A stretch of DNA of 41,732 bases from Candidatus Methylomirabilota bacterium (GTDB lineage: Bacteria; Methylomirabilota; Methylomirabilia; Rokubacteriales; CSP1-6): NCBI GenBank assembly GCA_046726415.1, contig JBKPAK010000129.1:1-41732 (forward strand). Direction: 5' to 3'. Every line of letters begins with the position of its first letter. The stretch's first letter is position 1. Of the stretch, positions 21,886 through 41,732 are shown piece after piece. The position numbers were made by a program, and so were the translations under genes. The notes beneath the pieces are model-generated. The model did no database searches and was not told where the DNA came from. It saw nothing but the letters and a program-made list of their open reading frames with translations.

Positions 21886-21997
21886 ACTGATGCTCGCGGG
21901 CTAGGCGCCGACTTGCTACCAGGTGCCGGACGGAGCGTTTTCCTCGGCGCTCCTGCCCGCGATTACCTTCCGAGGGGGCTCGACGAGGAGGAGCCGC

Positions 21998-23049: not shown

Positions 23050-23397
23050 CGCCGCCACGGCCTATACCAACGGGCTCCGCGCCGTGCAACCCACACTGTT
23101 CGACCTGTCAGCGTGCGTTTCAGACCGGAAACGCACGCCAGAGCACGACGAGGCGGAACCGAAGATCGATGTGGCGGAGATCGTCCACCTCCACGAGGCG
23201 AGGCCTCCCCGCTCCGCCCGCCGCAAGTACGCGCGATGGGAATTGGCGTGGGTCAGGGCCTGGCACATATCCATCCACGGTCTCCGAGGCTGAGTTCGTC
23301 TGCACGCACGATCCGGCGCGCGCCGATCGCGTGGTCTAGGCGATATCGACCTCGCGACCGCCGCCAACATCATCCGCGACGGGGAGCCCAACGCGTG

Positions 23398-24625: not shown

Positions 24626-24664
24626 ACCGACCCACCGACGACGCCACCGTCTGAGGTTTACATC

Positions 24665-25087
24665 GTGGCAGCCCGGCGTGCCGGCAAATCTCGTTTCGCG
24701 GGTGCGTTGGCGGTGCGTTCTGGAATTCGTCGCTACAAGTTGGCGCCCGGGGAGCGGGCCACCGTGGCGATCGCTGCCGCCGACAGGGACCAAGCGAGGG
24801 TGTTACTGGGGTACGCCGTCGCGCCGTTCGAAGAGCGCGAGGAGTTACGCAGCAGGGTTCAGAAACGCTCGGTGCTGGAGCCGCAGAGCGCGGACCTACG
24901 AGGCAGGCGCTTCATCGCCCCGGAAGTGTACCATCGCGGCCATGCAGACGACGCGGTCGCGTGTGAGTGGTGCAGGAGGCCGATCAAGGAAGGTGAAGCC
25001 AGGCTTCGCTTCTTTGCCATCGCGTATCACCTTGGCTGCGGGGACGCCTCGGTGGAAGCCTTGATGCCGCCACGGCGGCAGGAGTAA
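24665..25087 (+). pseudogene. Chimeric ORF: terminase-large-subunit-like ATPase fragment joined to a small Cys/His motif
   Basis: RRAGKSR...LAPGERATVAIAAADRDQARVLLGY resembles terminase N-terminal ATPase; then CEWCRRPIKEGE...YHLGC. Confidence 0.6.
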
Positions 25088-25109
25088 AAGCAGTGGAGCT
25101 GCGATAGGC

Positions 25110-25139
25110 TTGACAACTAATATAGCTGGAGGCTATATT
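25110..25139 (+). promoter_or_regulatory. sigma70 promoter TTGACA-N18-TATATT with 8-5-8 palindromic operator
   Basis: TTGACA 25110-25115, TATATT 25134-25139; AATATAGC-tggag-GCTATATT 25119-25139. Confidence 0.8.
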
Positions 25140-25341
25140 GGCCCCGAAGAGGCTGAGTAGGGTGATTCGCGTGTTGCGAGAGGAACGAGGCATGACGCAG
25201 GTGGAGCTGGCCAGGAAAGCCAGAATTACACAGCCGTACCTAACCCAGATCGAGCAGGGGGCGCGAAAAAACCCATCCCTGGATGTCCTGAAGCGCCTCG
25301 CCCGCGCCCTCGGCGTGCCGGTGACGGAGCTGCTGGAGTGA
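25138..25341 (+). CDS. XRE-family HTH transcriptional regulator
   Basis: LREERGMTQVELARKARITQPYLTQIEQGARKNPSLDVLKRLARALGV; start may be GTG 25162. Confidence 0.92.
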   Translation: MAPKRLSRVIRVLREERGMTQVELARKARITQPYLTQIEQGARKNPSLDVLKRLARALGVPVTELLE

Positions 25342-25347
25342 CGAGCC

Positions 25348-25611
25348 ATGAACGCTAACAAGTTTCATGACCAGGCCCTCGCAGCACTCGATTCCCGAAG
25401 TGGCAAGTGGCACTGCGTGTCGTGCTGGGCTCAGGCTGCTGTCCTGACGTCGCCTGAGGATCAGCAGCGTCTGGGCGCTCTCGCGCGTTCGTTTCTTGAC
25501 AGCACCGACGCCGAAGCGAAGCGCGGAGGTACCTGCGACGCCGGGCAGCATCAAACCGGGGGCCTTCTAGTACGAGCGGCAGCTCGCCGGCCCGCCGCGG
25601 AGCGTCGGTAG
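25348..25611 (+). CDS. Hypothetical protein with CxxC and CxxxxH, possibly metal-binding
   Basis: ATG 6 bp after XRE stop; HCVSCW and TCDAGQH. Confidence 0.6.
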   Translation: MNANKFHDQALAALDSRSGKWHCVSCWAQAAVLTSPEDQQRLGALARSFLDSTDAEAKRGGTCDAGQHQTGGLLVRAAARRPAAERR

Positions 25612-25678
25612 AAGACGCCCCCCAGGTGGGCGAACACAGGGCTACTCGGGGAGTGAGTGAAGGGAGAGAGAGTTTGAA

Positions 25679-25840
25679 ATGGCAGATCCAAGCAAGTTCG
25701 TTCAGATCACCGCAGTCCCTAGGCCTCCTGGCGGCGGGGCTGGGGATCTCACCATTTTCGCACTCGACGCACAGGGCTTTGTCTGGCGCCTCGATCCGCC
25801 GAATGCGACCTGGCAGCTTCTTGCGAGCGAGCGTGGGTAA
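25679..25840 (+). CDS. Small hypothetical protein, F-x-Q-I family copy 2 (53 aa, absent from ORF track)
   Basis: Hand translation MADPSKFVQITAVPRPPGGGAGDLTIFALDAQGFVWRLDPPNATWQLLASERG*; purine-rich RBS. Confidence 0.75.
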   Translation: MADPSKFVQITAVPRPPGGGAGDLTIFALDAQGFVWRLDPPNATWQLLASERG

Positions 25841-26543
25841 GTGACAAGACGCCCCCGCGCGTGCTGGTAACACGCCGGAGGCTGTGGCCCATCACCCTTA
25901 CCCCAGGAGGCAGAGAGGATGGAAGGTCGTGAGTCTGACGCCGAGGGCGCGGACGGGAAGTGGGGCGAAGCGGGTGAGGTTGCTCGGATGAGGATGACAG
26001 CATGGCGGATCAGCGGCCAACCTACTGGGGGGCGCTACTGGCGTGTCTGCGCGAGGGCTCCACGACGATCTTGACGTGGCTGAGGAACCTAATCGGGGGA
26101 CGCTGATGACCTCGGAGATCATCGGCATGAGCAACAGGACCTATCCATCCCGAACACCCGGTAGTGGGTGGGTCAGTTTGAGGGCTTCCTGCCCACGATC
26201 CGCTGGGCCAGCGTGCGGCGGGCCAGATCGAGCGTCATCGCGTGGGTCGCCAGGAGGTGGCACAGCATCGCGTCCACGTCCCGCGCGTCGTAGCCGCATG
26301 GGATCTGCGGCCGGCCATCCGGGCCGGTCCAGCGATGGCGAGTCGGGCCGTAGGATTGGGGCTCGGCGAGGAAGGGGCCGGTGGGTCGGTTGCACAACAT
26401 CATGCGAGGTTCTTGAGCGCTGCCTGCGCGGCCCACTTCGTCAGGGGAGGGGTGACCATCGGAAGAAGTGTACCAAGGCGGCCGGTGGCCGCCGAGGGCG
26501 GGGACGTGAGGGCCCGGCAGGGCGCAGAAAGGCCGAATGGTGC

Positions 26544-26996
26544 TCAGGACGGGAAGCGGAAGCGGTGAACGAAACGCTGACCGCATCTCCCACACTCGCA
26601 GTCCTCGGTTCTATCTCCCTCCGCGACAACGACCGTGTTCTTCTGAGTTCGGCACGTCGGGCATTGCCTCGAGCCCACCTCGAGGCGGTGCTCTTCCTCC
26701 TGGAAGCCGGGACCAGCGTTACTCCACTGGATGACCGTGTTCGATATGGATCGGCCTTTGTCCATTCGGTTCGCGACTTGGTAGTGGTCGAGCCAGGCTT
26801 TGATCCCGGTCGGATGGGGGATGTCATCGAAGAACCGCTTGCTGACGTCCAGGTCATAGTGGCGAGCTCGACGCCGAACAGTGAACTTGACGGTACGGCC
26901 CATGACGGCCCGCTCGACGAGACCCCCTTCGAAGTGCTCTCGCAGGTACTCCTCGACAACATCCACCAGGTCCGGATCGGGTTGCCACGTCGCCAT
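26544..26996 (-). CDS. Hypothetical protein with C-terminal zinc ribbon
   Basis: GGAGGG RBS; CPTC...CECGRC. Confidence 0.7.
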   Translation of the reverse strand: MATWQPDPDLVDVVEEYLREHFEGGLVERAVMGRTVKFTVRRRARHYDLDVSKRFFDDIPHPTGIKAWLDHYQVANRMDKGRSISNTVIQWSNAGPGFQEEEHRLEVGSRQCPTCRTQKNTVVVAEGDRTEDCECGRCGQRFVHRFRFPS

Positions 26997-27183
26997 CGTT
27001 CCCTCCGTGCCGGGTTCAGGTCTCGGTAGTAGGTGTTCACCTGGAGGGTGACCTTGGCGTCGTACGAGGGCGGATTGGGGGGGCGCTCATACTTCGAACT
27101 ATGCATCAGCGATCGGCTTCTAGCCAGAAGGGCGAGGGACTGGGACGAGGGGGAATTGGGGTGAGCGAGAGCGAAGGCCCCCC

Positions 27184-27354
27184 GTGACGGTGGAGACGAA
27201 GCAGGTCTACGTCCCGATGGAGGAGTGGAACATCGACGAAGCACGGAAGCGGCACGAGGCCGCGTGGCTCCGCGAGGGGTGGCGGCGGGCTCACGTGGTG
27301 TCGGTGCCGGGGAAGCCCATGTACCTTATTACGCTGGAGCGCGACGAAGGCTGA
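27184..27354 (+). CDS. Small hypothetical protein, DUF4177-like (56 aa, absent from ORF track)
   Basis: Hand translation (M)TVETKQVYVPMEEWNIDEARKRHEAAWLREGWRRAHVVSVPGKPMYLITLERDEG*. Confidence 0.5.
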   Translation: MTVETKQVYVPMEEWNIDEARKRHEAAWLREGWRRAHVVSVPGKPMYLITLERDEG

Positions 27355-27482
27355 GAGGGAGACCGTTGATCATCGCCGCCATCTCTATCGACCCGTTGGC
27401 CTCTTCGTCGAGAACGCCAGCTCGGGCTGGTCGCTGGCGCGTAGACGTCCGGAAGAGCACCGAGCGTGAAAGGAAGACAAGA

Positions 27483-27858
27483 ATGACTCCTCCGGAGCAC
27501 CCCTTTCTAGGGCCCTCGGCGGCGGTGGGACGAGATCTTTCCAGACATCCGTACGTTTCAGGTCGTGGTCACGGATCGCTCTGACCCCTACCGCCAGGAG
27601 TCACGGACGTACAGCTTGGGGACCGATATGCCAGGCACTCGTTTCGAGTGTACGAATTCGCATTGCAAGAACGGCGGAATCGACGTCATCGAGGTAACCC
27701 AGGTCCTCGATCGCATGGTGCGGACGCGGGAGCCGGAAGAAACGCTTGATACCTACTGCAAAGAGCGCGTTGGGCGCCGTGGATCGTCCGATCTCTGTGC
27801 GCGCACGTACTCCGTCAAGTACAAAGATCCGCCAGCAGGTGGGGACAACGCCGCCTAG
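27483..27858 (+). pseudogene. Cys-rich hypothetical gene, probably frameshifted near 5' end
   Basis: RBS+ATG at 27483 is one base out of frame with DEIFPDIRTFQVVVTD...CTNSHCKNGG...C...C. Confidence 0.45.
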
Positions 27859-27940
27859 CCCCGGGTTAAGGGAAACGGATGGCGGAGATGTTACGCGGAC
27901 GCAGGAAGGGCTGGGGCGACATGATAGGAGGGCAATTCTG

Positions 27941-28534
27941 ATGGCTAGCAAGTTCATTCAGATTCAACCAATCGCTCATGGGTCAGACATGCTGAACCTG
28001 GCTGCGGAGAATGGGAAGCTCCTACGCGTGCCGAAGATCCCCAAGCCACCGGATGGCAAGCCGCGTCAAGGATTTCTTGAACTAGACCAGTGCGCTGCCG
28101 TGGCCAGGTATCTCGCGCCGCACCTCCAGGTGGCGACCGCAATCGGCTACACACTAGGATGGCGGACCCAGGAAGTCTTGACGCGGCAGCGACAGCACCT
28201 CGACCTCGAGGAAGGGACCGTACGGCTCGGCCCGGACGAAACGAAGAGCGGTGAGCCGCGCGTCGCGTACCTGCCCCCGGAGCTGATCGGGCTCCTACGG
28301 GATCACTTGGACCGCGTGACCGCCCTGGAACAGAAGACCGGACGCTCCATCCCCCATCTGTTCCCCCACTTCACCAACGGACGGCGCCACCAGGCCGGTG
28401 ACCAGCCGCGCGACTGGCGCAAGGCGTGGGTGACCGCCTGCAGGAAGGCCGGAATCCCTGGTCGTGAGCCCGGACGACCTCAAGGAAGCAGCTCGCAAGA
28501 TGGCAGGCCCTCGCCAGGAAAACCTGTCTCGTAA
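27941..28534 (+). pseudogene. Tyrosine recombinase/integrase remnant fused to an F-x-Q-I N-terminal stub
   Basis: PRQGFLE, GWRTQEV (box I Arg), ETKSGEPR, WRKAWVTACRKAGIPGR then jump to out-of-frame VSPDDLKEAARK; HxxR and catalytic Tyr region missing. Confidence 0.85.
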
Positions 28535-28632
28535 GTCTAACGATGCTGTCGGTTTTGCCGATGCTGGGCACACTGGGGGGCCACACTGCCACCTTGAGGA
28601 CCGAAGGGAGCGAGGTAAGTGCCTGATTTGCA

Positions 28633-28709
28633 TGGTGGACGATGCTGGACTCGAACCAGCGACCTCTGCCATGTGAGGGCAGCGCTCTAACCAGCTGAGC
28701 TAATCGTCC
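28633..28709 (-). tRNA. tRNA-Val (anticodon CAC)
   Basis: 77-nt cloverleaf GGACGATTAGCTCAGCTGGTTAGAGCGCTGCCCTCACATGGCAGAGGTCGCTGGTTCGAGTCCAGCATCGTCCACCA. Confidence 0.97.
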
Positions 28710-28728
28710 GCCTCAACTGACGCTTGGA

Positions 28729-30892: not shown

Positions 30893-31624
30893 ATGACCGG
30901 GCGGACGGGCCGTGGGCTCGCGCTGACCGGTCTGGCCGCCTGGGTGGCCTATGCGTGGCTTCCCCATCTCGCAACCTTCGGCAGCATCCGGCGTGGGGCG
31001 CAAACCCAGCGCCGGATCGCGCTGACCTTCGACGACGGACCGCATCCTCGATGGACGCCGCGCGTCCTGGACGTCCTCGCCCGACAGGGCGTCCGAGCGT
31101 CGTTTTTCCTCGTTGGGCAGCGAGCGCAGCGCGCTCCCGACGTGGTGCGGGCGATCGCGGCCGATGGACATGAAATCGACAATCACAGTTGGTCGCACCG
31201 GAGCCTCTGGCTCTGCGGCCCCGGCCGGACCCGCAGCGAGATCGTCCGGGCCCACGAGACGCTCGCGGCCCTCGTCAATCGCCCGCCGCGCTTCTTCCGG
31301 CCGCCCTGGGGTATGGTCAACGCGGCGATGCCGGCGGCCCTGCGCGCCTGTGGCGAACGCCTGATCTTCTGGTCGATCCAGCCCGAGGGTCTTCGTCCAG
31401 TGGAGGCTGCAGTCCAAGTGGACCGCGTTCTTCGGCGCGCTCGCCCCGGCGCCATCGTTGACCTGCACGACGCCGAGGGAACCTCGGGAGCGCCGGATCG
31501 CCTGCTCGACGCACTGCCGGGGATGATCGATGGCCTGCGCGCCGCGGGCTATTGTTTCGCGAGCGTTGGTGAGTTGCTCGAGGCCGAGGCCCCTGCGGCG
31601 GATGGCCAGGATGTCAGAGGATGA
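30893..31624 (+). CDS. Polysaccharide deacetylase (NodB/CE4)
   Basis: TFDDGP, NHSWSH, FRPPWG, IVDLHD; N-terminal hydrophobic anchor. Confidence 0.92.
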   Translation: MTGRTGRGLALTGLAAWVAYAWLPHLATFGSIRRGAQTQRRIALTFDDGPHPRWTPRVLDVLARQGVRASFFLVGQRAQRAPDVVRAIAADGHEIDNHSWSHRSLWLCGPGRTRSEIVRAHETLAALVNRPPRFFRPPWGMVNAAMPAALRACGERLIFWSIQPEGLRPVEAAVQVDRVLRRARPGAIVDLHDAEGTSGAPDRLLDALPGMIDGLRAAGYCFASVGELLEAEAPAADGQDVRG

Positions 31625-31664
31625 GCGACGTGTCGAGCGCGCGTTGACGGGCCGAACCAGCCCT

Positions 31665-32339
31665 TCATGCGTCTTCCCTCCTCACCGTTCCCCTCTGCAG
31701 CCGGTAGATTGTGCCCAGACCGGTCAGGACATCGGGCCGGTGACTCACCACCACGACGGCGCTTCCCTCGGTCGCCCGCCTCCGCAAGGCGGCCAGGATC
31801 ACCCGGGCATTCGCATCGTCCAGGTTGCCGGTCGGCTCGTCGGCCAGCAGCAGCGGCGGATTGTTGAAGACGGCGCGACAGAACGCGACGCGTTGCTGTT
31901 CGCCGCCCGAGAGCTGCGCCGGGTAATGATCCCGTCGCTCGGCTATGCCGAACTCCTCGAGCAACCCTTCCGCTCTGCGGCGCGCCCCCGCGCCCCGCCG
32001 CCCCACGTACCGGGCGGCGAGAAGGACATTTTCCATCGCCGTCAGCGACGGCAGGAGCAGAAACGACTGGAAGACGAGACCCACGAAGCGGCCTCGGGCC
32101 TGGCTCTTGGCCGAGCGCGAGAGCGTGCTCACGACGCGCCCCCCGTAGGCCACGACCCCAGAGTCGGCCTCCTCGAGGAGCCCCAGGACGGCGAGCAGCG
32201 TACTCTTCCCGGAGCCGGACGCGCCCGCGATGACGGCGAGCTCACCGCCGGCCACCGAGAGGTCAACCCCGGCGAGCACGGGAATCAGCGTTCCCGCGGG
32301 AGCGCGAAAGGACTTCCGGATTCCCTCGGCGAGGAGCAT
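31665..32339 (-). CDS. ABC transporter ATP-binding protein (LolD/MacB-like)
   Basis: GASGSGKST, LSGGEQQRVA, ADEPTGNLD. Confidence 0.93.
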   Translation of the reverse strand: MLLAEGIRKSFRAPAGTLIPVLAGVDLSVAGGELAVIAGASGSGKSTLLAVLGLLEEADSGVVAYGGRVVSTLSRSAKSQARGRFVGLVFQSFLLLPSLTAMENVLLAARYVGRRGAGARRRAEGLLEEFGIAERRDHYPAQLSGGEQQRVAFCRAVFNNPPLLLADEPTGNLDDANARVILAALRRRATEGSAVVVVSHRPDVLTGLGTIYRLQRGTVRREDA

Positions 32340-33520
32340 CAGAGGCCACGCCGGATGGCCTCGGCGGGACTCACCCGAACAACCCGGAGCGTCGCATAGG
32401 CGGCCGCCAGCGCGCCCAATAGTACAGCGAACACCAGGGCGCCGACGAGCAGCCGCGCGGAGAAGAGGAACAGCTGCTGCCCGCTGCGCGCCGCATAGAC
32501 CTCCACGGCCCCGCCCACGGCCAGAGCGAGGGCGATCCCAACGAGCCCGCCGGTCAGGGTCACCACGAGGGCCTCGCCCAGGATCTCTCGCCCGAGCTGG
32601 CCATCGGTGGCGCCGAGCGCGCGCTTGATGCCGAAGTCGCGAATCCGCTCGAATACCGCCGCGGTAATCGTGTTGGCCAGGGACAAGCCGCCGATCACCA
32701 GGCCGAGGGCGCCGATGCCCACGATCAACGCCGAGAAGAACGCGGTCGAGCTGCGCAAGAGATTGCTCAGCTCGCTCGGGAGCTGGACGTTGATCCCTGG
32801 GACCTGCTCGCGAATCCGCCGAGCCACCGCGTCGGGGTCCTCGCCCTCTCGCCAGCCCACCGCTGCGCCCGTGTTCAGGTCCGCTGCGGTCAGGGCGAGA
32901 CCCCCCGAGGCGAGGGCCGTCCGCAGGAGGGGATCCTTGGTCACCCACAGGACCCGCGCGTCTGCAATAGGTACGATGACGAAGCGGTCCGGCGCGGTGA
33001 GCGTGGGCTCCAGCACGCCGACGACCGCAAACGATTGACCATCCAGGGGCAGCGCGTCTCCTACGCGGAGCCCCCGCGAGGCGGCGAACGACGCGCCGAG
33101 CACGGCCACGTGCCGGTCGCCGTCCCGCAACGGGCGCCCGGACTGCACGGGCAACACGGGAAAGGATCGGTTCGGCATGGGGACGGCGAGATCCAGTCCG
33201 AGGATCAGCTCCTGCGTGAGCGTCATGAACTGAGAGACCGAGGGATTCAGGGGAAGCATGACCTGGGCCTGCACGCCGGCCACGCCCGGTACCTCCGCAA
33301 GGGCGCGGATGGTCGAGGCCTGAAGCAAACCGCCGGCGGTGAAGCCCGTGCCCATGCCCATACCGCGACCGGCCACCGAGATCTGCCCGAGCACGAAGCG
33401 ATCGCCCCCCTCGATGAACCGGACGATCCGCTCGCTCATCGCGCCGAGGGCCACCAGTCCCGCCACCCCGATGGCGACGCCCGCGATGGTGAAGGCGTAC
33501 TGACGGATGCGGACGCGCAT
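32339..33520 (-). CDS. ABC transporter permease (MacB/FtsX-like)
   Basis: N-terminal TM, periplasmic domain, ERIRDFGIKRALGA, three C-terminal TMs. Confidence 0.9.
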   Translation of the reverse strand: MRVRIRQYAFTIAGVAIGVAGLVALGAMSERIVRFIEGGDRFVLGQISVAGRGMGMGTGFTAGGLLQASTIRALAEVPGVAGVQAQVMLPLNPSVSQFMTLTQELILGLDLAVPMPNRSFPVLPVQSGRPLRDGDRHVAVLGASFAASRGLRVGDALPLDGQSFAVVGVLEPTLTAPDRFVIVPIADARVLWVTKDPLLRTALASGGLALTAADLNTGAAVGWREGEDPDAVARRIREQVPGINVQLPSELSNLLRSSTAFFSALIVGIGALGLVIGGLSLANTITAAVFERIRDFGIKRALGATDGQLGREILGEALVVTLTGGLVGIALALAVGGAVEVYAARSGQQLFLFSARLLVGALVFAVLLGALAAAYATLRVVRVSPAEAIRRGL

Positions 33521-33540
33521 GGCGGGAACCTCGCCGCCCG

Positions 33541-34827
33541 CTACCACTCCAGACGCGATGCGACGGGCCGGCCGGTGCGACGACGCACCCACCGATTGAT
33601 CCGTGCAACCCCGAAGAGAATGCTCAAACTCAACCGCGTGCGCCACGGCATGGTGAAGAAGGTCCCGCCCGAGAGGACGTGGAGCACAGCCTGGTAGATC
33701 CCGAAGATCGATTTGGGGTGCATGAGCAGATCGAAGAACGCCGGTTCGTAGTACTTGTGGATGAAGCGGAACAGCGGCGCGGTGCCGCGGCGCACGGCCC
33801 TCTCATAGCCGGTGAATCGCGCGGCCCGAAAATCGCCCGCCCTGAATGCATGCACGATGGCCTCGGCGGCAAGCTGGCCGCTTCGCATGGCGATGAAGAC
33901 ACCCCCGGAAAAGATGGGATCGACGAACGCCACGGCATCGCCGACCGCCACGAATCGATCCCCCACTACTGGAGTGTTCAGGTAAGCGAAGTTGCTCGCG
34001 CGATGCACGGGGGTCACCCGGCGGGCCCCGCGGAGGCCCGCGGCCACGCTGGGACAGCGGCGGATCATGTCTGCGTAGAGGTCATCCATCGGCAGCTGGG
34101 CCGAGCGCACGGTGCGGGCATGGAGAACACTGCCGACGCTGGTGAGGTCGTCGGCGAGCGGGATCCACCAAAACCAGCCGTCGTCGACGACGTAGATCCG
34201 GATGTTGCCCTCTTCCTTCCCCGAGCGGCGGGCGGCCCCCCGGAAATGCGCAAAGAGCGCCACCTTGCCGAGATTCGGAATGCGCGCACGGCGGCCAAGG
34301 CAGGAGGCGAGGAAGCCATCGCGGCCACTGGCGTCGACGAGCATCCTCGCGCGGACGGTGCCCGTCACGCCATCGTGCTCGACGGTCACGGCGACGCCGT
34401 CGGTGGTGAAGGTCGCCGACTGCACCGTGGCCGGCTGGTGCACGTCCACTCCCCGTGTGCGCGCGTTCTCCAGAAGGATGGTGTCGAACTCGGCCCGCGG
34501 GACTTGATACGTGTAGTTGGGCCAGGGCCGGTCAGGCAGGAAGTAGAACGTCTGCTCCTCCCGCGCGTTCTCGTCGACGAAGCATGCGCCGTACTTCACC
34601 TGGAAGCCGGCCGCCTCGACAGCCCCGCGGGCGCCCACCTGCTCCAGGATGAGCATCGTGGCGGGCATGAGCGACTCGCCCACGTGGAAGCGTGGGAAAA
34701 CGTCGCGCTCGAAGAGCCCAACCCGCAGGCCCGCGGCCGCCAGGAATCCAGCGGTCGTCGAGCCCCCCGGTCCACCTCCCACCACGACGACGTCATAGGA
34801 GACGGTCGAGTCAGCGCAATGGGTCAT
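33541..34827 (-). CDS. FAD-dependent oxidoreductase, flavin-dependent halogenase family
   Basis: GGGPGG, PRFHVGESL, GFQVKYG, GWFWWIP (WxWxIP), FVDPIFSGG. Confidence 0.85.
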   Translation of the reverse strand: MTHCADSTVSYDVVVVGGGPGGSTTAGFLAAAGLRVGLFERDVFPRFHVGESLMPATMLILEQVGARGAVEAAGFQVKYGACFVDENAREEQTFYFLPDRPWPNYTYQVPRAEFDTILLENARTRGVDVHQPATVQSATFTTDGVAVTVEHDGVTGTVRARMLVDASGRDGFLASCLGRRARIPNLGKVALFAHFRGAARRSGKEEGNIRIYVVDDGWFWWIPLADDLTSVGSVLHARTVRSAQLPMDDLYADMIRRCPSVAAGLRGARRVTPVHRASNFAYLNTPVVGDRFVAVGDAVAFVDPIFSGGVFIAMRSGQLAAEAIVHAFRAGDFRAARFTGYERAVRRGTAPLFRFIHKYYEPAFFDLLMHPKSIFGIYQAVLHVLSGGTFFTMPWRTRLSLSILFGVARINRWVRRRTGRPVASRLEW

Positions 34828-35780
34828 GGACGGCTCAGCCGTGAGGTCGCGAGGGACGCGTCGAGATTGGCGACGGCCACCCGTGACGCCGCCGGCGGAA
34901 TCGCCGGACTGACCAACTCGGGCGAATAGAGCCGACGGACCAGCGGGCTCACGAGATCGAATCCCAGGGGTCCGAGGCCGGTTTGCAGGAGGACAGCGGC
35001 CAGCACGACGGGGGCGGAGACCGTGGCGGCCGCGGCGGCCTTCGCCCGACGACGACGCGACGCGTTCAAACCGGCGCCCTCATGATCGTGAAGGTCGAAG
35101 GCGATCTCCTGAACCCACCGGGCCACAACCTGTCCCGCGAGATATGCGCCGATGGCGACGCCGTCTCGAACCGGCCGGAAGCGGCTGCGACGTCGCGCGG
35201 AGGGTATGGCGGTCACCGCGACCTCGCGGACGCGCCAGCCGTGCCGCGCCGCCGCGATGAGGACCTCGGTCTCGAAGACAAAGCCGCCACGGCAGACGCC
35301 GACCTCCTCGAGGAGGGCCATCGGATACACGCGAAAGCCCGACTGCGTATCGCGTACGCCAAGCTCGGTCACCCACTCCACGAAGAATCCAGCGACGACC
35401 ATCGCGTTGAGGCGGGCGCGCGGAAAGCGGGCGGTGTCGGTGAGGCGGTTGCCCACGATGATCTGCTCGGGCGTCTCCCGCGCCGCGCCGAGGAGAACGG
35501 GCAGATCGCCGGGCGCGTGCTGTCCGTCCCCGTCCATCGTGACCACAGCGGACGCCCCGAGCGCCCGCGCAACGGCGATGCCGGTTCTGAGGGCCGCCGC
35601 CTTGCCCCGGCGCTCGGCGTGCCGGACGACCTTGGCGCCCGCCCGCACCCCTGCCAGCCCGCTGCCGTCAGAGGATCCGTCATCGACGACGATAACCGGG
35701 GCGTAGAGGGAGGCCCCCGTCACCACGCTCGCGATGGCGAGCATCTCGTTGTAGACGGGAATGACGATGACGGGCGTCAT
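34824..35780 (-). CDS. Glycosyltransferase family 2
   Basis: IPVYNE, VDDGSSD, DGDGQH, DTQSGFRVYP, FETEVL. Confidence 0.9.
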   Translation of the reverse strand: MTPVIVIPVYNEMLAIASVVTGASLYAPVIVVDDGSSDGSGLAGVRAGAKVVRHAERRGKAAALRTGIAVARALGASAVVTMDGDGQHAPGDLPVLLGAARETPEQIIVGNRLTDTARFPRARLNAMVVAGFFVEWVTELGVRDTQSGFRVYPMALLEEVGVCRGGFVFETEVLIAAARHGWRVREVAVTAIPSARRRSRFRPVRDGVAIGAYLAGQVVARWVQEIAFDLHDHEGAGLNASRRRRAKAAAAATVSAPVVLAAVLLQTGLGPLGFDLVSPLVRRLYSPELVSPAIPPAASRVAVANLDASLATSRLSRP

Positions 35781-36886
35781 GCAGCCGGCGCAGGCCCCAC
35801 GACGAGAGCAGCCTGGGCGCCACCACGCGCGGCGCCATGCACCAGGCCGATGCCGGGTGGCACCCGCATCACTCTCACCCCAGGGTTGATGGCGTCCTCG
35901 CCTGAACCGACGATCGCGGGCAGTAGGCCGGAGCGGGCCGTCCATGCCGCCGCCGCCACCCGCAGTGCCCCCAGGGCCGAATGATGCCCCCATACTCGGG
36001 CCAAGGCGGCGATCGGTGGGCGGTACGGCGCGAGGGCCGTTTCCAGAAGCGACTGCTCCCACGCGTCGCGAGCGGTGTCGCCGCTCGCCGAGGCGTACAC
36101 CCACCCAACCGCTTCAGGGGAGCTGCCGGCCCGTCCCAGGGCGAGACCGACGACGCGCGAGCGACTGGTTCGACCCACGCCCAGCGGGCGAGCGGGAAGC
36201 GCACCGGTCGCGACCCCGAGGATCTCGCCCAGCACGCGGGCCTCTCGTGCTCGTGCTATGCCCAGGGATTCCAACACTAGGAACGCCGCGCCCTCCCCCC
36301 GCCCGCGCGCGTCGACCCCCAAGGTGCCGAGGATCTCCACGGTGTACGGATCCAGCTCATCCACACCTCCCGCGAGCAGACGGTCGGCTCGCCCCGCGGC
36401 GATCAACGTGGCGGCCCGAACCACGGCCAGTTCGCCCGGGATGCCAGGCGCGTTGATGGTCAACGACAGGGCGTGCGCCCCGAGCACCATCGAGGTCGCG
36501 GCCGCCATGGTGTTCATGACGGTGTTGGGAAACAGCAGCGCCGAGAGCCCCGCTTGCCCGCGCGCCAAATAGCCATCAGCAAAGTCACGGGTTGAGCGGA
36601 GGTCACCCAGTTCCGTGCCGACCACGAGGCCCAGGCCCTCCGAATCGCAATCGGCATCTCGCAGGGCCAAGCGGGCAGCGGCCACCGAGAGTTGGCACAC
36701 GCGCGAGAGGCGCCGCACATCGACGCCGTCGACGAGGCCGACCAGGGCCGCCGGGCCGAGCGGTCCGAAGCACGATTGCGGACGCGCCAGCGAGGCCCCG
36801 AGCGCCGACGAGCCACCGCTGAAGGCGCCCTCGACGGCCCCTACCCCAGTGATCACGACCCGGCGGCCCCCGTCCCGGTCGCTCAC
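35777..36886 (-). CDS. Ketosynthase-like protein lacking catalytic Cys (chain-length-factor-like)
   Basis: VVITGVG, LFPNTVMN, AGGVDE, GEGAAFLVLE; TINAPGIPG at the TACSS position. Confidence 0.8.
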   Translation of the reverse strand: MSDRDGGRRVVITGVGAVEGAFSGGSSALGASLARPQSCFGPLGPAALVGLVDGVDVRRLSRVCQLSVAAARLALRDADCDSEGLGLVVGTELGDLRSTRDFADGYLARGQAGLSALLFPNTVMNTMAAATSMVLGAHALSLTINAPGIPGELAVVRAATLIAAGRADRLLAGGVDELDPYTVEILGTLGVDARGRGEGAAFLVLESLGIARAREARVLGEILGVATGALPARPLGVGRTSRSRVVGLALGRAGSSPEAVGWVYASASGDTARDAWEQSLLETALAPYRPPIAALARVWGHHSALGALRVAAAAWTARSGLLPAIVGSGEDAINPGVRVMRVPPGIGLVHGAARGGAQAALVVGPAPAA

Positions 36887-38067
36887 GCGGCAGCGCGACG
36901 GAACAGCAAGGTCACGTTCTGGCCGCCGAATCCGAAGGAATTCGAGATGGCATGCTCCACCGCGACGGGGCGCGCCTGGTGCGCGACGCAATCGAATGCC
37001 ACGTCGGGATCCTGCGAGTCGAGGTGAACGGTGGGGGGGATGATGTCGTGAACGAGCGCGAGCACGGTGGCCATCGCCTCGAGACTGCCGGCGGCGGCCA
37101 TGGTGTGCCCGATCATCGACTTTGTCGAGGACACGAGCAGCCCCTCTGCGCCGAACACCGCGCGCAAGGCCTGAGCCTCGACGCGATCGTTCTGCGGGGT
37201 GGCCGTGCCGTGGGCGTTGGCGTAGCCGACGTCCGCCGCCGTGAGGCCACTGCGCGTTAGCGCCTCGTCCATGGCCCTTGCCATGCCCGTTCCGTCCGGA
37301 TGCGGTGCGGTGACGTGATAGGCGTCGGAGGTCATGCCGTAGCCGGCCAGTTCAGCGTAGACGCGGGCGCCACGCCGGCGCGCGTGCTCGGCGTTTTCGA
37401 GGACGACGAATCCGGCACCCTCGCCGATCGACATGCCTCGGCGGTCGCGATCGAACGGCCGACACGGTTCCGGGTCCAGGAGTTTCAGGGCGTTGAAGCC
37501 GAGGTAACACGTGCGCGTGATCGCATCAGCCCCCCCGGCGAGTACGACGTCGGCGACGCCGGTGGTGACCATGTCGGATGCCACGGCCAACGCCGCGGCG
37601 CCTGAACTACAGGCAGTCACGAGCGTCTCGCGGGGCCCGTAAAGGCCGAGACGGTTCGCCACGACTTCCGCGTGCGACCACGGAAGGACGGCCGCGAGCG
37701 CGCGCCGATCGGGCGCTCTCCCGCCGCGACGCGCCTGTCGCCAGTACCACGCCTCGGCCTCGAACATCCCACCACCGATGGCGCCCACGACTACGGCCAC
37801 TGCCGAGCGCTCCGCGCGTTCCAGCCGGGCGTCGTCCAGGGCCTCCGCCGCCGCCGCGAGGGCCAGCCGGTCGCCGCGCGACCGGCGCGGGGACCCTGGC
37901 ACGGGGTCCGGGATCTCCGCCGCCAGCCGGCTCCGGAGTCCCTCGGGGTCGAGTAGGGTGATGGGTCGGATCGCACAGAGGCCTTCGGCCAGGCCGTTCC
38001 AGTACGGCTTGACCCCAACGCCAAAAGGGGTCATCGCACCCAGGCCGGTGACGACGGCGCGCCTCAT
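36883..38067 (-). CDS. Beta-ketoacyl-ACP synthase (FabF-like)
   Basis: TACSSG, NAHGTAT, KSMIGHT, NSFGFGG. Confidence 0.93.
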   Translation of the reverse strand: MRRAVVTGLGAMTPFGVGVKPYWNGLAEGLCAIRPITLLDPEGLRSRLAAEIPDPVPGSPRRSRGDRLALAAAAEALDDARLERAERSAVAVVVGAIGGGMFEAEAWYWRQARRGGRAPDRRALAAVLPWSHAEVVANRLGLYGPRETLVTACSSGAAALAVASDMVTTGVADVVLAGGADAITRTCYLGFNALKLLDPEPCRPFDRDRRGMSIGEGAGFVVLENAEHARRRGARVYAELAGYGMTSDAYHVTAPHPDGTGMARAMDEALTRSGLTAADVGYANAHGTATPQNDRVEAQALRAVFGAEGLLVSSTKSMIGHTMAAAGSLEAMATVLALVHDIIPPTVHLDSQDPDVAFDCVAHQARPVAVEHAISNSFGFGGQNVTLLFRRAAA

Positions 38068-38339
38068 CCGCCTCCCGACCGGCTCACGATGAACTGGCAC
38101 AGCGTGTCGAGCGACGCGAAGTGCGGCGCCAGATCCTCCGCCTCGTCCATCACGAGCCCGAACCGCTCCTCGATGGCGATGGCCAACTCGATGAAGTCCA
38201 GGGAGTCGAGCCCGATGGCCCCGTCCAGGCCCTTGGGTAGCGGGGTGTCGGCGGTGATCTCCGCGGCCCGACGCGGATCGAACTTGAGACGGGTCACCAG
38301 AATTGCCTTCAGCTCGTCGAGCACTTCCTTGGCCTGCAT
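38064..38339 (-). CDS. Acyl carrier protein
   Basis: GLDSLDFIELAIAIEERFG phosphopantetheine site; 91 aa. Confidence 0.92.
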   Translation of the reverse strand: MQAKEVLDELKAILVTRLKFDPRRAAEITADTPLPKGLDGAIGLDSLDFIELAIAIEERFGLVMDEAEDLAPHFASLDTLCQFIVSRSGGG

Positions 38340-39091
38340 CAGCCTCCCGCCCTTGTCACGAGATCGATCCCTGTACTCGACAGTCCGGCTGCGGCCAATG
38401 CGAGCGCGATGAGGGGGGCGCAGGCGAAGGTTTCTCCGGCGCGCTGGGACACCGCAGGCAACAGCGGCGCCACAACCTGGAACGAATCCGCATCCGTCTC
38501 GCGTCCGGGCACGAGCAGGACCGCCACCGCCGCCTCGACGAGCGGCCGCCGGGTGAGCCAGCGGCCCCGCGCGAAGAGATCCGCGCAGTCCTCGACCGTT
38601 TCCACGGCCAGGACCAGTGCGCGCTCGCAGACGCGCTGGCGCAGCAGTGTCGCGCCTTGCCAGAGGGCGTGGATGGCCGTTCGAGCGGTACCGATGAAGA
38701 TCAGGTACGGTCCCGTGAGTCCGAACTCGATGGCCACCTCCCCGGGCACCGCACTTGGAGCAGTATACGGGAAGTGCAGCGTACCCGCGCCTCCCGTCTG
38801 ATCGATGAAGGCCCGATTTGCCGCGGCGTAGGCGGTCGTCGTGACATAGATCAAAGCCGTCCCGCTCCCGCGCAGAGACGCCCGCGACACGTCGCCGTCG
38901 ACAAGCAATGCCTCCACGGCGGCCACCCCGAGGAGGCACTCGCGGGTCGCCCGCCGGAATCGGTCACCGACGAGGACCGGCCGGGGAAGCGGAATCATAC
39001 CGCGCCCGTTCGCCGCCTGGCGCGCATCGGCGGGCAGCGCCTGCACCCCTCGGCCCCATCCGGTGAGCACCCCAGCCGCGGCCACGTTCAC
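38339..39091 (-). CDS. Short ketosynthase N-terminal-like protein lacking catalytic Cys (chain-length-factor-like)
   Basis: DRFRRATRECLLG, LHFPYTAPSAVPGEVAIEFGLTGP; 250 aa; GTGA-coupled to upstream KS. Confidence 0.78.
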   Translation of the reverse strand: MNVAAAGVLTGWGRGVQALPADARQAANGRGMIPLPRPVLVGDRFRRATRECLLGVAAVEALLVDGDVSRASLRGSGTALIYVTTTAYAAANRAFIDQTGGAGTLHFPYTAPSAVPGEVAIEFGLTGPYLIFIGTARTAIHALWQGATLLRQRVCERALVLAVETVEDCADLFARGRWLTRRPLVEAAVAVLLVPGRETDADSFQVVAPLLPAVSQRAGETFACAPLIALALAAAGLSSTGIDLVTRAGG

Positions 39092-40272
39092 GCCGCGCCC
39101 TCCAGCACCAGCGCCGCGTTGCAGCCTCCAAAGCCCAGCGAGGTACTGAGGCTGATTCGAGGTCGGCACGAGCGGGCTGCGCCCAGGACATGGCCCAGCT
39201 GACAGGTGGAATCGACCTCTTCCAGCCCGACGGTTGGCGGCACCACGCCGTGGCGTGGCGCGAGCAGGCACATGATCGCCTCCAAGGTCGCCGCCGCTCC
39301 CATGGTGTGTCCGAGCGCGCCCTTGATGGAATTCACCGGGACTTCGAGCGCCCGCGCGCCGAGGATCCGCTGCAGCACCGCGGTCTCGATGCGATCGTTG
39401 AGGATCGTCCCCGTGCCGTGCGCGCTCACCAACTCCACGTCACCAGCCTCGACGCCCGCCTCGGCCATCGCCGTTCGGATGGCAAACTCGAGGCCACGCC
39501 CTTGGGGATCCGGCGCCGCGATGTGCGAACCGTCGCTCGCGCTGCTATGTCCGAGGAGACGACCCAGACGAGGCCCCTGGTGAACGCCATCGCGCGCCAT
39601 CGCCACGAGGGCCGCGCCTTCGCCGAGGAGGAGGCCGCTGCGGCGGCGGTCGAAGGGCCGCACGCGGTCCCGCGTCAGCGAGCGAAGCGCATTGAAACCG
39701 CGCATCACGAATCGACACAGGATGTCGTATCCGCCCGCGACGACGAGATCGGCGCAGCCATCGCGCAACAGGTCTGCCCCCACGCCGAGGGCAGTAGCGC
39801 CGGAGGCGCATGCGGTCGAAACGGTCAGCACTGGCCCGCGGACGCCGAGATGGCGCGCCAGCGCGTGCCCGGGGACATCGTAGAGCGCGCCTGCCGCACG
39901 CCTGAGCCGCCGGTCTCCGAGCGCATGCTCGCCCTCTTCCACGCCCCCCAGCGCTGTTCCGACGACGACGGCGAGCCGCGTTGACGGAACGTTCAGCTCG
40001 ATGCGGCCGTGCAGGTCGTCGGCGGCCGCCAGCAACAGCTCGGTGGCTCGCCCGCCCCGCACAGGCCGCCGGCGAGCGAATGCGAATTTCTTGATCTCGC
40101 CTCCGCGAGGCACGTGCAGATCATGGACCGGAAAGCGCTCGATGGCCCCGATGCCATCGGCTCCGGTGACCAGGCTCGCCCAGAAGGCGTCGAGATCCGC
40201 CCCGACCGGCGTAATGACGCCGGCCCCGAGGATGGCGATCGGTTCACGCCGCAGAGGAGGTCCTCCCGCCAT
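39088..40272 (-). CDS. Beta-ketoacyl-ACP synthase (FabF-like)
   Basis: TACASG, SAHGTGT, KGALGHT, SLGFGG; start uncertain. Confidence 0.92.
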   Translation of the reverse strand: MAGGPPLRREPIAILGAGVITPVGADLDAFWASLVTGADGIGAIERFPVHDLHVPRGGEIKKFAFARRRPVRGGRATELLLAAADDLHGRIELNVPSTRLAVVVGTALGGVEEGEHALGDRRLRRAAGALYDVPGHALARHLGVRGPVLTVSTACASGATALGVGADLLRDGCADLVVAGGYDILCRFVMRGFNALRSLTRDRVRPFDRRRSGLLLGEGAALVAMARDGVHQGPRLGRLLGHSSASDGSHIAAPDPQGRGLEFAIRTAMAEAGVEAGDVELVSAHGTGTILNDRIETAVLQRILGARALEVPVNSIKGALGHTMGAAATLEAIMCLLAPRHGVVPPTVGLEEVDSTCQLGHVLGAARSCRPRISLSTSLGFGGCNAALVLEGAA

Positions 40273-40296
40273 ACGTGGGAGGCGGGTAGCGCGCAA

Positions 40297-40360
40297 CGTC
40301 CCGGGTTCCCCGGGGCGCGGCGAGCAGAGAGGGCTGGGGGGGCCCGTTCGAGGCCCCCCA
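40297..40360. repeat. Intergenic double hairpin (REP-like)
   Basis: CGTCCCGGG-TTC-CCCGGGGCG and GGGGGGCC-CGTTCGA-GGCCCCCC. Confidence 0.5.
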
Positions 40361-40365
40361 TCTCA

Positions 40366-41196
40366 TTAGAGCCATGGTGAATAGTACATGCGGAACACGC
40401 GGATGACGCCGGGCTCGGTGTCGTACACACGCGTGGCGAGGAATTGTCGCTGCCGCCGGTCGAAGGTAAGCTGGCCCGGCCCCGCAGAATCGTTGGGATC
40501 CCACGTTGCGAACTCGATGGTGCCGGCCCCCTCCTGGAATTCGTAGGCCACCACCGTGTGGTTCAGCTCGGGCTTCGGCCAGTTGGTGACGAGGAGCTGG
40601 ACCAGTCGACCGGCGGAGATCTCGTCCATGATCGCTCGCGCGACCTCGGCCTGATGTCCGGCGGCCAGCGGAAACACGACGCGCCAGTTGGTCCAGTGGA
40701 CCCAGGTCCAGAAGCGGCCGCCAAGGGCCGCCTTGACCGCGGGTTCCTTGTCGCGCGACAGATCCCGGAGATTGGCGTACCCGGGAATGACGACGCGCTC
40801 CGCCGGTGAGAGCGGGGACTCCCATGCCGGGCGCGCCACGATCTGACGGATGCGCGCGACGTATCCGTCGTCATCGAGACGGGGCGCCGCCGGATCGAAG
40901 CGAGCGAAGGCAAAGAACTGGCGAAGACCCCGGGCTAGCACGAAGCAATAGTTGGCGTACAGATCGTCCTTGTCGGGATGCCGGGCTCGGATGTCATTCC
41001 GAAAATCGAAGGTGTCGGTGGCAAACGAGAACCCGGCAACCGATGTCGGGGGGGCCACCCCGCCAGGCGGCGGGAGAAGGGAACGGGCCGCGCACGCCCC
41101 GGACACCAGCAGCGCGCCGAGGGCGACACTGAGCGCGCTAGCGCGTTGAGCGACCCGGAACCTCGAACGACCGGAAGTCCAGACGCGCGAACTCAC
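40366..41196 (-). CDS. Hypothetical exported lipoprotein with papain-like Cys-His-Asp pattern
   Basis: Hydrophobic signal ending SGAC; ANYCF, NHTVVAY, WDPN. Confidence 0.7.
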   Translation of the reverse strand: MSSRVWTSGRSRFRVAQRASALSVALGALLVSGACAARSLLPPPGGVAPPTSVAGFSFATDTFDFRNDIRARHPDKDDLYANYCFVLARGLRQFFAFARFDPAAPRLDDDGYVARIRQIVARPAWESPLSPAERVVIPGYANLRDLSRDKEPAVKAALGGRFWTWVHWTNWRVVFPLAAGHQAEVARAIMDEISAGRLVQLLVTNWPKPELNHTVVAYEFQEGAGTIEFATWDPNDSAGPGQLTFDRRQRQFLATRVYDTEPGVIRVFRMYYSPWL

Positions 41197-41275: not shown

Positions 41276-41732
41276 ATGACGCGGGCGATCGCGCGCTTCT
41301 ACCAGAGCCTCTACGACCACGTCCTGTGCCGCCTCCCCGAGCCCGTCGCGGTTGCCCTGGGGCAATCGATGCTCCGCACGCTCCCCTTCGACCGGCTCGG
41401 TCGCGTCCGCCTCGAGGATCCTCGGCTCGCCATGGCACTCGGGGGCGTGTGCCTCGCGAATCCGCTCATCCTCGCCGCGATGTACTACGAGGCGACGATT
41501 CTGCGCCGGGCCATGGGCCTCGGCTTCGGCGCGGTGACTGGGAAGTCGATCACTGTGCAGCCGCGGCCAGGCCACCCTCGGCCGAACCTCGCCCGCGTGC
41601 GCACGGCGGCCGGACCCGGGCTTGTGAACTGTAATGGGTTCCAGAATCCCGGACTCGAGGCGTTCCGCCGGACCTTGGCCCGCCTGCCTCATCGCGTCCC
41701 CTTCATCGTGAGCGTGGCCGGCGAATCAGCGG
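41276..41732 (+). CDS. Dihydroorotate dehydrogenase-like protein, runs off right edge
   Basis: Hand translation: DPRL...NPLILAA...LGFGAVTGKSITVQPRPGHPRPNL...NCNGFQNPG. Confidence 0.8.
   Translation, partial: MTRAIARFYQSLYDHVLCRLPEPVAVALGQSMLRTLPFDRLGRVRLEDPRLAMALGGVCLANPLILAAMYYEATILRRAMGLGFGAVTGKSITVQPRPGHPRPNLARVRTAAGPGLVNCNGFQNPGLEAFRRTLARLPHRVPFIVSVAGESA

Follow-up and report, generated by a model that had tools for sequence, protein, structure and literature searches.

Organization of the operon

A gene cluster with features of type II polyketide and fatty acid synthases was analysed on contig JBKPAK010000129.1 (C129) of a Candidatus Methylomirabilota bacterium from the order Rokubacteriales. 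The whole contig of 41,732 nucleotides served as the window; it belongs to a 7.6-Mb genome in 352 contigs that is rated 98% complete. Ten genes lie head to tail on the minus strand from position 41196 down to 31665, and a convergent deacetylase gene on the plus strand stands at the end of this operon. The subject of this report is the operon and the envelope lipid that its products may assemble.

The first operon gene (40366-41196, minus strand, like the nine that follow) encodes a lipoprotein of 276 amino acids without a Pfam or NCBIfam match. It is followed by KS1, a FabF-type ketosynthase (KS) (39088-40272; PF00109 and PF02801), and by CLF1, a truncated KS-like partner of 250 amino acids of the chain length factor (CLF) kind (38339-39091), which overlaps KS1 by GTGA and matches PF00109 at 2e-05. 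Next come a dedicated acyl carrier protein (ACP) of 91 amino acids (38064-38339; PF00550), the second FabF-type ketosynthase, KS2 (36883-38067), and its full-length KS-like partner, CLF2 (35777-36886), the last two assigned by Pfam, NCBIfam and alignment. The remaining genes encode a family 2 glycosyltransferase (GT2) of the lipid-phosphate type, similar to PpgS, AglJ and the N-terminal part of ApeJ (34824-35780; PF00535), a flavin halogenase of the Trp_halogenase/FAD_binding_3 type (33541-34827; PF04820), a MacB/LolC-type permease with a periplasmic MacB_PCD domain and FtsX (32339-33547; PF12704 and PF02687), for which 33547 and 33520 are both start candidates, and an ATP-binding cassette (ABC) ATPase of the LolD/MacB/DevA type (31665-32339; PF00005). 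The convergent gene (30893-31624, plus strand) encodes a NodB-type polysaccharide deacetylase (PF01522, Polysacc_deac_1, 1.5e-34; NodB model, 5.7e-39), which is a possible member of the system only. Start and stop codons overlap as GTGA, TGATG or ATGA at all junctions from KS1 through the ATPase. The same gene content, order and strand had been given in a first-pass annotation of this DNA and were borne out by Pfam and NCBIfam; its chain of coupled genes was likewise found at every one of these junctions.

Upstream of the operon, a divergent dihydroorotate dehydrogenase-like (DHOD-like, pyrD-like) gene starts at 41276 and runs on into contig C111. The last 46 codons of this open reading frame (ORF) in the window are identical in both contigs (window 41594-41731, C111 3-140), and C129 and C111 can be joined across it. 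Beyond the DHOD-like gene, C111 carries radC, an NAD(P)HX repair gene (nnr), acpS, a phosphoglucosamine-mutase-type gene (glmM) and ftsH. Since the divergent gene continues on C111, the contig end does not truncate the operon, whose start is at 41196. A promoter scan gave no sigma-70-like promoter and was uninformative, as was a terminator scan, which placed two terminator-like sites within the halogenase gene, fewer than in shuffled sequences.

Two ketosynthase pairs and a dedicated carrier protein

Alignments showed that KS1 and KS2 both keep Cys-His-His. CLF2 lacks the catalytic Cys and the first His, and CLF1 lacks the Cys together with the whole C-terminal half that bears both His. This agrees with the earlier claim of two intact ketosynthases, each with a Cys-less partner. 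Neither CLF1 nor CLF2 has a Gln at the Cys position of the alignment.

No PDB match for CLF1 was obtained by phmmer at E<=1, and profile searches returned only weak matches to the N-terminal part of ketosynthases (best 7.7e-05). The best Foldseek matches of its AF2 model (pLDDT 81.6) were KS and CLF chains, including 6kxe_B, 1tqy_B and 6smp_I. A representative search (1.84 billion) gave 187 clusters at E<=0.001, so the family is narrow; ten distant relatives checked by cluster carried no informative names. KS1 and CLF1 were predicted to form a heterodimer, with an ipSAE of 0.95 against 0.00 for the best control; among solved complexes 116 of 157 score this high, and among mismatched pairs 2 of 215. 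At least 90% of the contacts were common to three runs and the pLDDT of the partner was at least 84. As similar KS/CLF complexes have already been solved, this score shows likeness and not binding. The structural pairing proposed as a check of the first-pass annotation is thus predicted for KS1:CLF1.

The best NCBIfam model of KS1 was NF006618 (263 bits; cut-off 407), on which KS2 scored 315 bits, and that of the ACP was NF006617 (44 bits; cut-off 70). These two models represent the ApeO and ApeE families of aryl polyene (APE) biosynthesis, because the Escherichia coli proteins exceed their cut-offs (ApeO, 556 bits against 407; ApeE, 89.5 bits against 70). Direct comparison gave 33.5% identity for KS1 and ApeO (1e-50), 36% for KS2 and ApeO (5e-65) and 32.5% for the ACP and ApeE (1.5e-12). 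KS2 is closer to the FabF of its own genome on contig C92 (42% identity). In a KS tree of 25 rows, KS1 and KS2 each formed a clade with support of 100/100, and CLF2 grouped, at 100/99, with the KS-like partner of a different lipid cluster that is described below. The phylogeny that had been suggested as a check therefore defined the two ketosynthase clades and left their origin with respect to ApeO, ApeR and FabF unresolved.

Glycosyltransferase and acyltransferase

The best curated model of GT2 was PpgS (1.7e-31), a polyprenyl-phosphate GalNAc transferase that is also the best curated model of the ApeJ N-terminus; GT2 aligned with ApeJ residues 5-223 at 32% identity (5.6e-24). By these matches GT2 is assigned to the lipid-phosphate (PpgS/ApeJ N-terminal) type. 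The glycosylated lipid or polyene that had been expected from the cluster is therefore most likely a sugar-phosphate lipid that is then acylated, and not a glycosylated polyene.

The first-pass annotation had overlooked the gene that defines the logic of the system, an acyltransferase of the LpxL/HtrB/PatA family (PF03279). It lies between the lipoprotein gene and KS1 in 45 of 69 relatives. In the present genome it is found outside the operon on contig C334 (961-1998, minus strand), followed by a gene for a Methyltransf_12 protein, which the end of the contig truncates. The picture of a system contained in one window thus has to be amended, as the window is the full contig C129 and two of the parts sit on C334. 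The best curated model of the acyltransferases was the sugar acyltransferase PatA of phosphatidylinositol mannosides (1.8e-22 and 2.5e-29, below its cut-off). They aligned with ApeJ residues 289-550 at 30-32% identity (2e-16 to 3e-18), the in-cluster copies of relatives over 289-550 and the C334 enzyme over 367-550 (3e-18). When ApeJ was in turn searched against the genome, the GT2 of the cluster came out best for its N-terminal half and the C334 acyltransferase for its C-terminal half.

The C334 pair is assigned to the system because the extended locus of genome G109 ends with a closely similar pair. This locus begins with the lipoprotein, KS1, CLF1, ACP, KS2, CLF2, GT2, permease and ATPase genes and continues after the ATPase with genes for a 137-aa protein, an ArnT-like PMT_2 protein and a radical-SAM protein, then a deacetylase gene on the opposite strand, and finally the acyltransferase and methyltransferase genes, whose products are 69% and 62% identical to those of C334. 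In G164, which belongs to the same genus as the present genome, the acyltransferase gene lies in the cluster.

The combination of a special ACP, two FabF-like proteins and a PF03279 acyltransferase is also that of the rhizobial cluster for fatty acids of very long chain length (VLCFA), as described in PMC11901934. The KS pairs and the ACP could accordingly make an extra-long or unusual fatty acid which the acyltransferase puts on lipid A or another envelope lipid, while GT2, the deacetylase and the ArnT-like family C glycosyltransferase (GT-C) of relatives would separately decorate the same target with an amino sugar in an Arn-like way. LpxC and LpxB are present in the genome, so the organism is a diderm with lipid A. 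In addition, 7 of 14 loci have PMT_2/ArnT-like genes after the pump (ArnT model, 1.6e-09), and KS2 is, as mentioned, closer to FabF than to ApeO. We nevertheless consider this explanation rather unlikely, since the cluster has no FabZXL- or Adh-type gene, the best model of the acyltransferase is PatA, a glycophospholipid sugar acyltransferase, and not LpxL or LpxXL, the present genome has no ArnT-like orthologue but only a match of 32% identity (2.9e-09), and the known VLCFA pathway has no step for a halogenase that acts on carrier-bound substrates.

Another possible acceptor is a hopanoid. GT2 and the deacetylase would then act like HpnI and HpnK, upstream of HpnJ, and a sugar with an acyl chain would be placed on bacteriohopanepolyol. 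The extended locus L014 does contain an HpnJ equivalog (TIGR03471, 753 bits; cut-off 577.6), close copies occur in further loci (82-84% identity in L019; 82-84% for the radical-SAM gene of the G109 locus), and the present genome has an HpnJ of 771 bits. The latter, however, lies on the separate contig C179, the core operon is conserved without HpnJ, GT2 gave no match to the HpnI model at E<=1e-3, and the deacetylase is of the NodB type, whereas HpnK belongs to a different family. A hopanoid-linked product is therefore improbable.

Search for the remainder of an aryl polyene cluster

Given the best family models of KS1 and the ACP and the match of GT2 and the acyltransferase to the two halves of ApeJ, the operon could be a fragment of a standard APE cluster with its other genes elsewhere in the genome, an outcome that the first-pass annotation had named as one that would overturn it. 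The 18 Ape proteins of the annotated ape cluster of E. coli CFT073 were searched against the entire 98%-complete genome by tblastn at E<=1e-6. No homologue was found for ten of them (ApeA, B, C, E, G, H, I, L, N and P), and ApeM had one marginal match on contig C8 (3e-7, 23% identity). ApeD, ApeF and ApeK gave one weak match each outside the cluster; ApeQ matched, again outside the cluster, only generic FabG-like short-chain dehydrogenases/reductases (SDRs), of which the genome has many. The other KS loci, on contigs C80, C56 and C59, carried no APE-type modules. As the ketosynthases and the ACP also score under the curated cut-offs of the ApeO and ApeE models, a split standard APE cluster was rejected, and we regard it as extremely improbable.

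Halogenase and ABC pump

Flavin halogenases of the carrier-protein-substrate type are marked by the FAD-binding GxGxxG motif, a catalytic Lys and WxWxIP. The halogenase of the operon has GGGPGG, a KYGA that aligns with KKYGA of ChlB4, and WFWWIP, which aligns with WMWQIP. Its PDB matches were ChlB4 (4.8e-69), the FADH2-dependent halogenase 5buk (6e-66), PltA (2.2e-62) and CmlS (1e-54), and enzymes of the ChlB4, PltA and CmlS type act on carrier-bound substrates. From its sequence the protein is classed as an FADH2-dependent halogenase of the carrier-protein-substrate type. It is an accessory gene of the cluster: in 34 of 39 loci it is flanked by GT2 and the permease, and it is missing in 4 of the 12 20-kb loci with the same gene order. 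The locus of the same-genus genome G163 (L013) is without it.

The pump is of Type VII (MacB/LolCDE-like), its FtsX permease having a large MacB_PCD domain in the periplasm and its ATPase being a protein of its own. The best models of the ATPase were the darobactin exporter DarD (4.9e-54), LolD (3.9e-51) and MacB (1.1e-50), followed by DevA (5.3e-43). No adaptor gene was seen beside the pump in the fetched loci; the rest of the genome was not searched for one.

The relationship of the halogenase to ChlB4, PltA and CmlS, which come from antibiotic pathways, and that of the ATPase to DarD could also indicate a true secondary metabolite, namely a diffusible halogenated polyketide or polyene that is made by minimal type II polyketide synthase (PKS) pairs and exported by the ABC pump. 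The set of KS, CLF and ACP without a ketoreductase (KR) or dehydratase (DH) resembles a minimal aromatic type II PKS in this respect, and a KS:CLF heterodimer is predicted. The CLFs, however, are without the Gln, no cyclase, aromatase or thioesterase family match was found among the scanned cluster proteins, a membrane-lipid GT2 and a PatA/LpxL-type acyltransferase are part of the system, and the cluster is near-universal in the order and stands in a housekeeping context. The chance that the product is a diffusible metabolite thus appears slim.

A lipoprotein with a predicted papain-like fold

The lipoprotein that opens the operon had also been overlooked in the first-pass annotation. It has a lipobox, and residues C84, H213, D233 and N235 are invariant in 12 orthologues. 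The best match of its AF2 model (pLDDT 79.0) in VIA-align was the C-terminal domain of BtaeB (Z 9.0, rmsd 3.8 Å, 145 residues aligned), followed by IdeS (Z 8.3) and then by staphopain, SpeB, C39 domains and other clan-CA peptidases. Most of the 50 best VIA-align matches were papain-fold proteins, with Z from 9.0 to 4.9, although by the program's own note a Z near 8-9 is possible without kinship. The best Foldseek E-value was weak (3.3e-3), and neighbours in the ESM Atlas carry DUF8321/DUF8322. The models thus point to a papain-like fold with a catalytic-looking, predicted Cys-His-Asp.

Conservation of the cluster

CLF2 homologues were counted at E<=1e-10 in 251 genomes of the phylum, including the unpublished G076 and G217. 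They were present in 163 genomes, and in 74 of the 104 that are at least 90% complete and at most 5% contaminated; the window's own family contributed 121 of 158 genomes and the next family 18 of 21. Weak matches (1e-11 to 1e-15) in families on the Methylomirabilis side are probably cross-matches to FabF. Of the 14 loci of 20 kb that were fetched, 12 have the gene order of the cluster. Searching with the lipoprotein alignment gave 80 best loci, which came from metagenome-assembled genomes (MAGs) of the Rokubacteria/Methylomirabilota type or from a few otherwise-labelled MAGs with the same locus, and KS1 followed the lipoprotein gene in 69 of them. The MAGs of the relatives are labelled Rokubacteria, Rokuibacteriota or Methylomirabilota. 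The clade-wide occurrence of the locus together with its housekeeping neighbours makes an envelope lipid likelier than a strain-specific secondary metabolite. No account of the cluster was found in the accessible text of open-access papers and preprints on Rokubacteria/Methylomirabilota, including PMC7298704 and PMC8692599.

Eight MAG records that go under the names Binatia, Acidoferrum, Verrucomicrobiia, Dormiibacterota, Nitrosotalea or Limnocylindria have a Rokubacteria-type locus with 46-63% identity to the lipoprotein of the window (L039, L073, L083, L088, L089, L094, L099 and L112), and these loci are likely mis-binned or mislabelled contigs. In two long-read MAGs the match to KS1 is split over two to three frames (L013, 13297-14455; L018, 12593-13501 and 10364-11537), and in L018 the KS2 match is split as well; the cause of the split frames is either indels in the assembly or gene decay.

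Two Rokubacteria MAGs have an additional locus (L105 and L107), in which a paralogous lipoprotein of 49% identity is accompanied by an acyltransferase, another halogenase, an ACP, a 418-aa protein of unknown kind, the methyltransferase, an SDR and a TetR gene. In these genomes, whose main cluster has no acyltransferase, the system thus seems to occur again with a different construction.

A different lipid cluster occurs in another family of the same class (L022, on contig C8 of G001, 1166-17984; L023, on contig C9 of G002), and it is the KS-like partner of this type of cluster with which CLF2 groups in the tree. It comprises four radical-SAM genes, of which three encode a B12-binding domain, as well as genes for an LpxL-type acyltransferase, a NodB-type deacetylase, a KS and its KS-like partner, a phytoene-desaturase-like flavoprotein, two DUF2229 genes, FabD, FabG and a FabA/Z-like gene. 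We take it to resemble the proposed 'ladderane-type' lipid clusters. In the present genome, contig C80 (22415-27208; L113, 5416-10209) has a row of genes for a thiolase-like protein, a ChsH2-type OB protein, a KS, an ACP and an LpxD-like hexapeptide acyltransferase, possibly another module for a special acyl chain with a link to lipid A.

Proposed function of the operon

The cluster is a real, conserved and uncharacterised system, most likely of APE lipid (APEL)-like or VLCFA-like lipid assembly, with a different exporter and a catalytic-looking lipoprotein. We propose that it is a Rokubacteriales-wide operon for a lineage-specific envelope lipid and that it works in the manner of the APEL system, a proposal to which we give an even chance. 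The product is most likely an acylated sugar-phosphate envelope lipid, in the present genome probably halogenated, that is exported to the cell envelope. With LpxC and LpxB encoded in the genome, it would add to lipopolysaccharide and be no substitute for it. APEL is a GalNAc-phosphate-glycerol lipid, and ApeJ was proposed to transfer GalNAc onto a phospholipid, the sugar then being acylated by the ApeE-bound polyene (bioRxiv 10.1101/2020.12.19.423268). From this proposal, and from PpgS being the best model for both GT2 and the ApeJ N-terminus, we infer the transfer of a sugar to a lipid phosphate and its subsequent acylation with an ACP-derived chain. What the product and its acceptor are, and what the second KS pair, the halogenase and the lipoprotein do, is likewise inferred.

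The following course of events would be consistent with the gene set. The KS1:CLF1 and KS2:CLF2 heterodimers would use malonyl units to lengthen an acyl primer that is bound to the ACP, and housekeeping FabD, FabG, FabZ and FabI would load and reduce the chain, as they do for NodE/NodF. The halogenase could chlorinate or brominate an electron-rich intermediate while it is bound to the ACP. GT2 would move an (N-acetyl)hexosamine from a UDP-sugar onto a membrane-lipid phosphate, either of the phosphatidic acid type or polyprenyl phosphate, where the deacetylase may free the amine. The acyltransferase would then transfer the ACP-bound chain to the sugar, the MacB-type pump would pull the product out of the inner membrane in the direction of the outer membrane, and the putative Cys-His-Asp lipoprotein might process or transfer it there.

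Several observations weigh against this proposal. CLF1 and ApeC have no BLAST match to each other, and hhalign gave a probability of 0.2% (E 0.29). GT2 and the acyltransferase fit PpgS and PatA about as well as they fit ApeJ, so that the link to APE consists of co-occurring parts and not of close orthology, and KS1 and KS2 do not join ApeO in the tree, which leaves their relations to ApeO, ApeR and FabF unresolved. The conserved cluster has no KR, DH or enoyl reductase; the chain could thus be saturated, a polyene or a poly-beta-keto chain. The acyltransferase gene is unlinked to the operon in this genome, and none was found with this query at 1e-20 in G163 of the same genus, which is 95% complete. 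Only 4 of 12 syntenic 20-kb loci (L013, L018, L019 and L025) have the deacetylase gene close to the cluster. Finally, the ArnT-like GT-C genes after the pump and the HpnJ equivalog with its close copies point to other acceptors.

A bolder extension of the proposed lipid pathway assigns a central task to the lipoprotein. The pump, working by mechanotransmission, would hand the halogenated acyl-sugar-phosphate lipid over to the membrane-anchored lipoprotein, which would act as a periplasmic transacylase, a kind of 'lipid sortase', with the special chain bound as a thioester on Cys84, and would fix this chain covalently to an acceptor in the envelope, for instance lipid A, a hopanoid, peptidoglycan or a lipoprotein. 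We consider such a new outer-membrane lipid route a long shot. If true, it would mean a clade-wide halogenated envelope component that is unknown in any cultured bacterium.

The pathway outlined in the first-pass annotation stands in so far as a non-canonical and undescribed route to an exported, sugar-bearing and perhaps halogenated lipid is concerned. Three corrections are needed: the product is placed in the envelope, parts of the system had been missed, and the lipid is of the sugar-phosphate type. New in the present analysis are the acyltransferase-methyltransferase pair on a second contig, the reading of the lipoprotein as a papain-fold protein, and the predicted KS1:CLF1 heterodimer.

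Rokubacteria are abundant uncultured soil bacteria with large genomes, and we know of no work on their envelope chemistry. A near-universal operon that joins PKS/FAS-like chain synthesis of type II, optional halogenation, the assembly of a sugar lipid and a pump of its own predicts a lineage-specific lipid and a possible biomarker, which, if halogenated, would be easy to spot by its isotope pattern in soil lipidomes. The operon offers a handle on how the phylum builds its outer membrane, and it provides a testable context for the putative papain-fold lipoprotein (DUF8321/DUF8322). The ApeJ-type logic of a sugar-phosphate lipid plus acyl-ACP would occur here outside Proteobacteria and Bacteroidetes, stripped down, split and combined with a different exporter, which bears on the evolution of APE-type systems.

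Other genes of the window

The absence of a ketoreductase, a dehydratase and a starter ligase had been claimed for the whole window. It holds for the cluster, but not for the window, which contains three SDR genes (2597-3550, 7621-8718 and 11514-12731), a MaoC dehydratase gene (8738-9292), an enoyl-CoA hydratase gene (12268-13041) and an AMP-binding ligase gene (4921-6732), all at least 18 kb away. They belong to a CoA-type fatty-acid set linked to a TetR (YsiA-like) gene at 2597-13618, which also includes a hydrolase and a solute-binding protein and looks like an ordinary degradation locus. The SDR, MaoC and AMP-ligase genes (2.6-13 kb) were considered as the KR, DH and ligase of the cluster and rejected, because MetH, regulators and an integrative element intervene and their neighbours are of the CoA type (enoyl-CoA hydratase, TetR/YsiA). 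The set is not syntenic with the cluster in relatives.

Beyond the deacetylase gene, the stretch at about 21.1-28.7 kb (21100-28710) has a lower G+C content of 63-64.5%. It carries an integrase-like ORF (27746-28534; phrog_1 at 1.2e-12) beside a tRNA-Val gene (28633-28709), a gene for a DUF3854 protein (23113-24330) and several ORFs without a family. The same-genus genome G163 (L013) lacks this stretch, the gap between the response-regulator gene and the deacetylase gene being about 240 bp. The segment is an integrative element at tRNA-Val and lies outside the cluster.

Comparison with known systems

The APEL system of E. coli CFT073 and Xenorhabdus doucetiae shares with the operon a KS with a truncated Cys-less partner (ApeC, 240 amino acids; CLF1, 250 amino acids; the two sequences have no detectable similarity), an ApeE-like ACP, a PpgS-like GT2 and a PatA/LpxL-like acyltransferase, which are fused in E. 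coli ApeJ and split here, and a dedicated export route to the outer membrane. Halogenation is optional in the wider APE family, as seen with xanthomonadins and flexirubins. On the other hand, the operon is without the ApeH starter ligase, ApeI/ApeP, the ApeK thioesterase, ApeB, the MMPL pump ApeM, the LolA/LolB-like ApeL/ApeN and ApeG, and has no ApeQ-type reductase within the cluster. It has one ACP and not two, a second KS pair in place of ApeR, and a MacB-type ABC pump with a putative papain-fold lipoprotein. The cluster therefore works like the APEL system, yet it is not an APE cluster: it has ApeJ, as two separate genes, but no ApeO-type KS, ApeE/ApeF carriers, dehydratases or ketoreductase, MMPL with ApeL/ApeN, or aryl starter ligase.

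The rhizobial cluster acpXL-fabZXL-fabF2XL-fabF1XL-adhA2XL-lpxXL likewise combines a dedicated ACP with two FabF-like genes side by side and an acyltransferase of the LpxL family. It makes an unusual envelope acyl chain and uses the housekeeping fatty acid synthase for most steps, according to PMC11901934. In contrast to the rhizobial genes, each KS here has an inactive partner, the set is enlarged by a GT2, a halogenase, an ABC pump and a lipoprotein, PatA and not an LpxL model gives the best score for the acyltransferase, and a FabZ- or Adh-type gene is absent from the conserved cluster.

Highly reducing type II PKSs (Iga11/Iga12 of ishigamide, AntD/AntE, and AmcF/AmcG of cispentacin) also use a KS:CLF heterodimer and a free-standing ACP. 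The model of CLF1 matches 6kxe_B and 6smp_I, and AmcF and AmcB models match KS1, KS2 and the ACP. These matches, however, are below the cut-offs, the cluster has no KR or DH, CLF1 is without half of the fold, and the context here is lipid assembly and export, while theirs is a soluble product.

With respect to the exporter, DevBCA, which exports heterocyst glycolipids, and LolCDE combine an FtsX/MacB_PCD permease with a separate ATPase and take a lipidic cargo from the inner membrane, as proposed here. They differ from the present pump in that no gene for a membrane-fusion protein or a LolA-type carrier lies beside it, and the only periplasmic candidate in the operon is the putative papain-fold lipoprotein.

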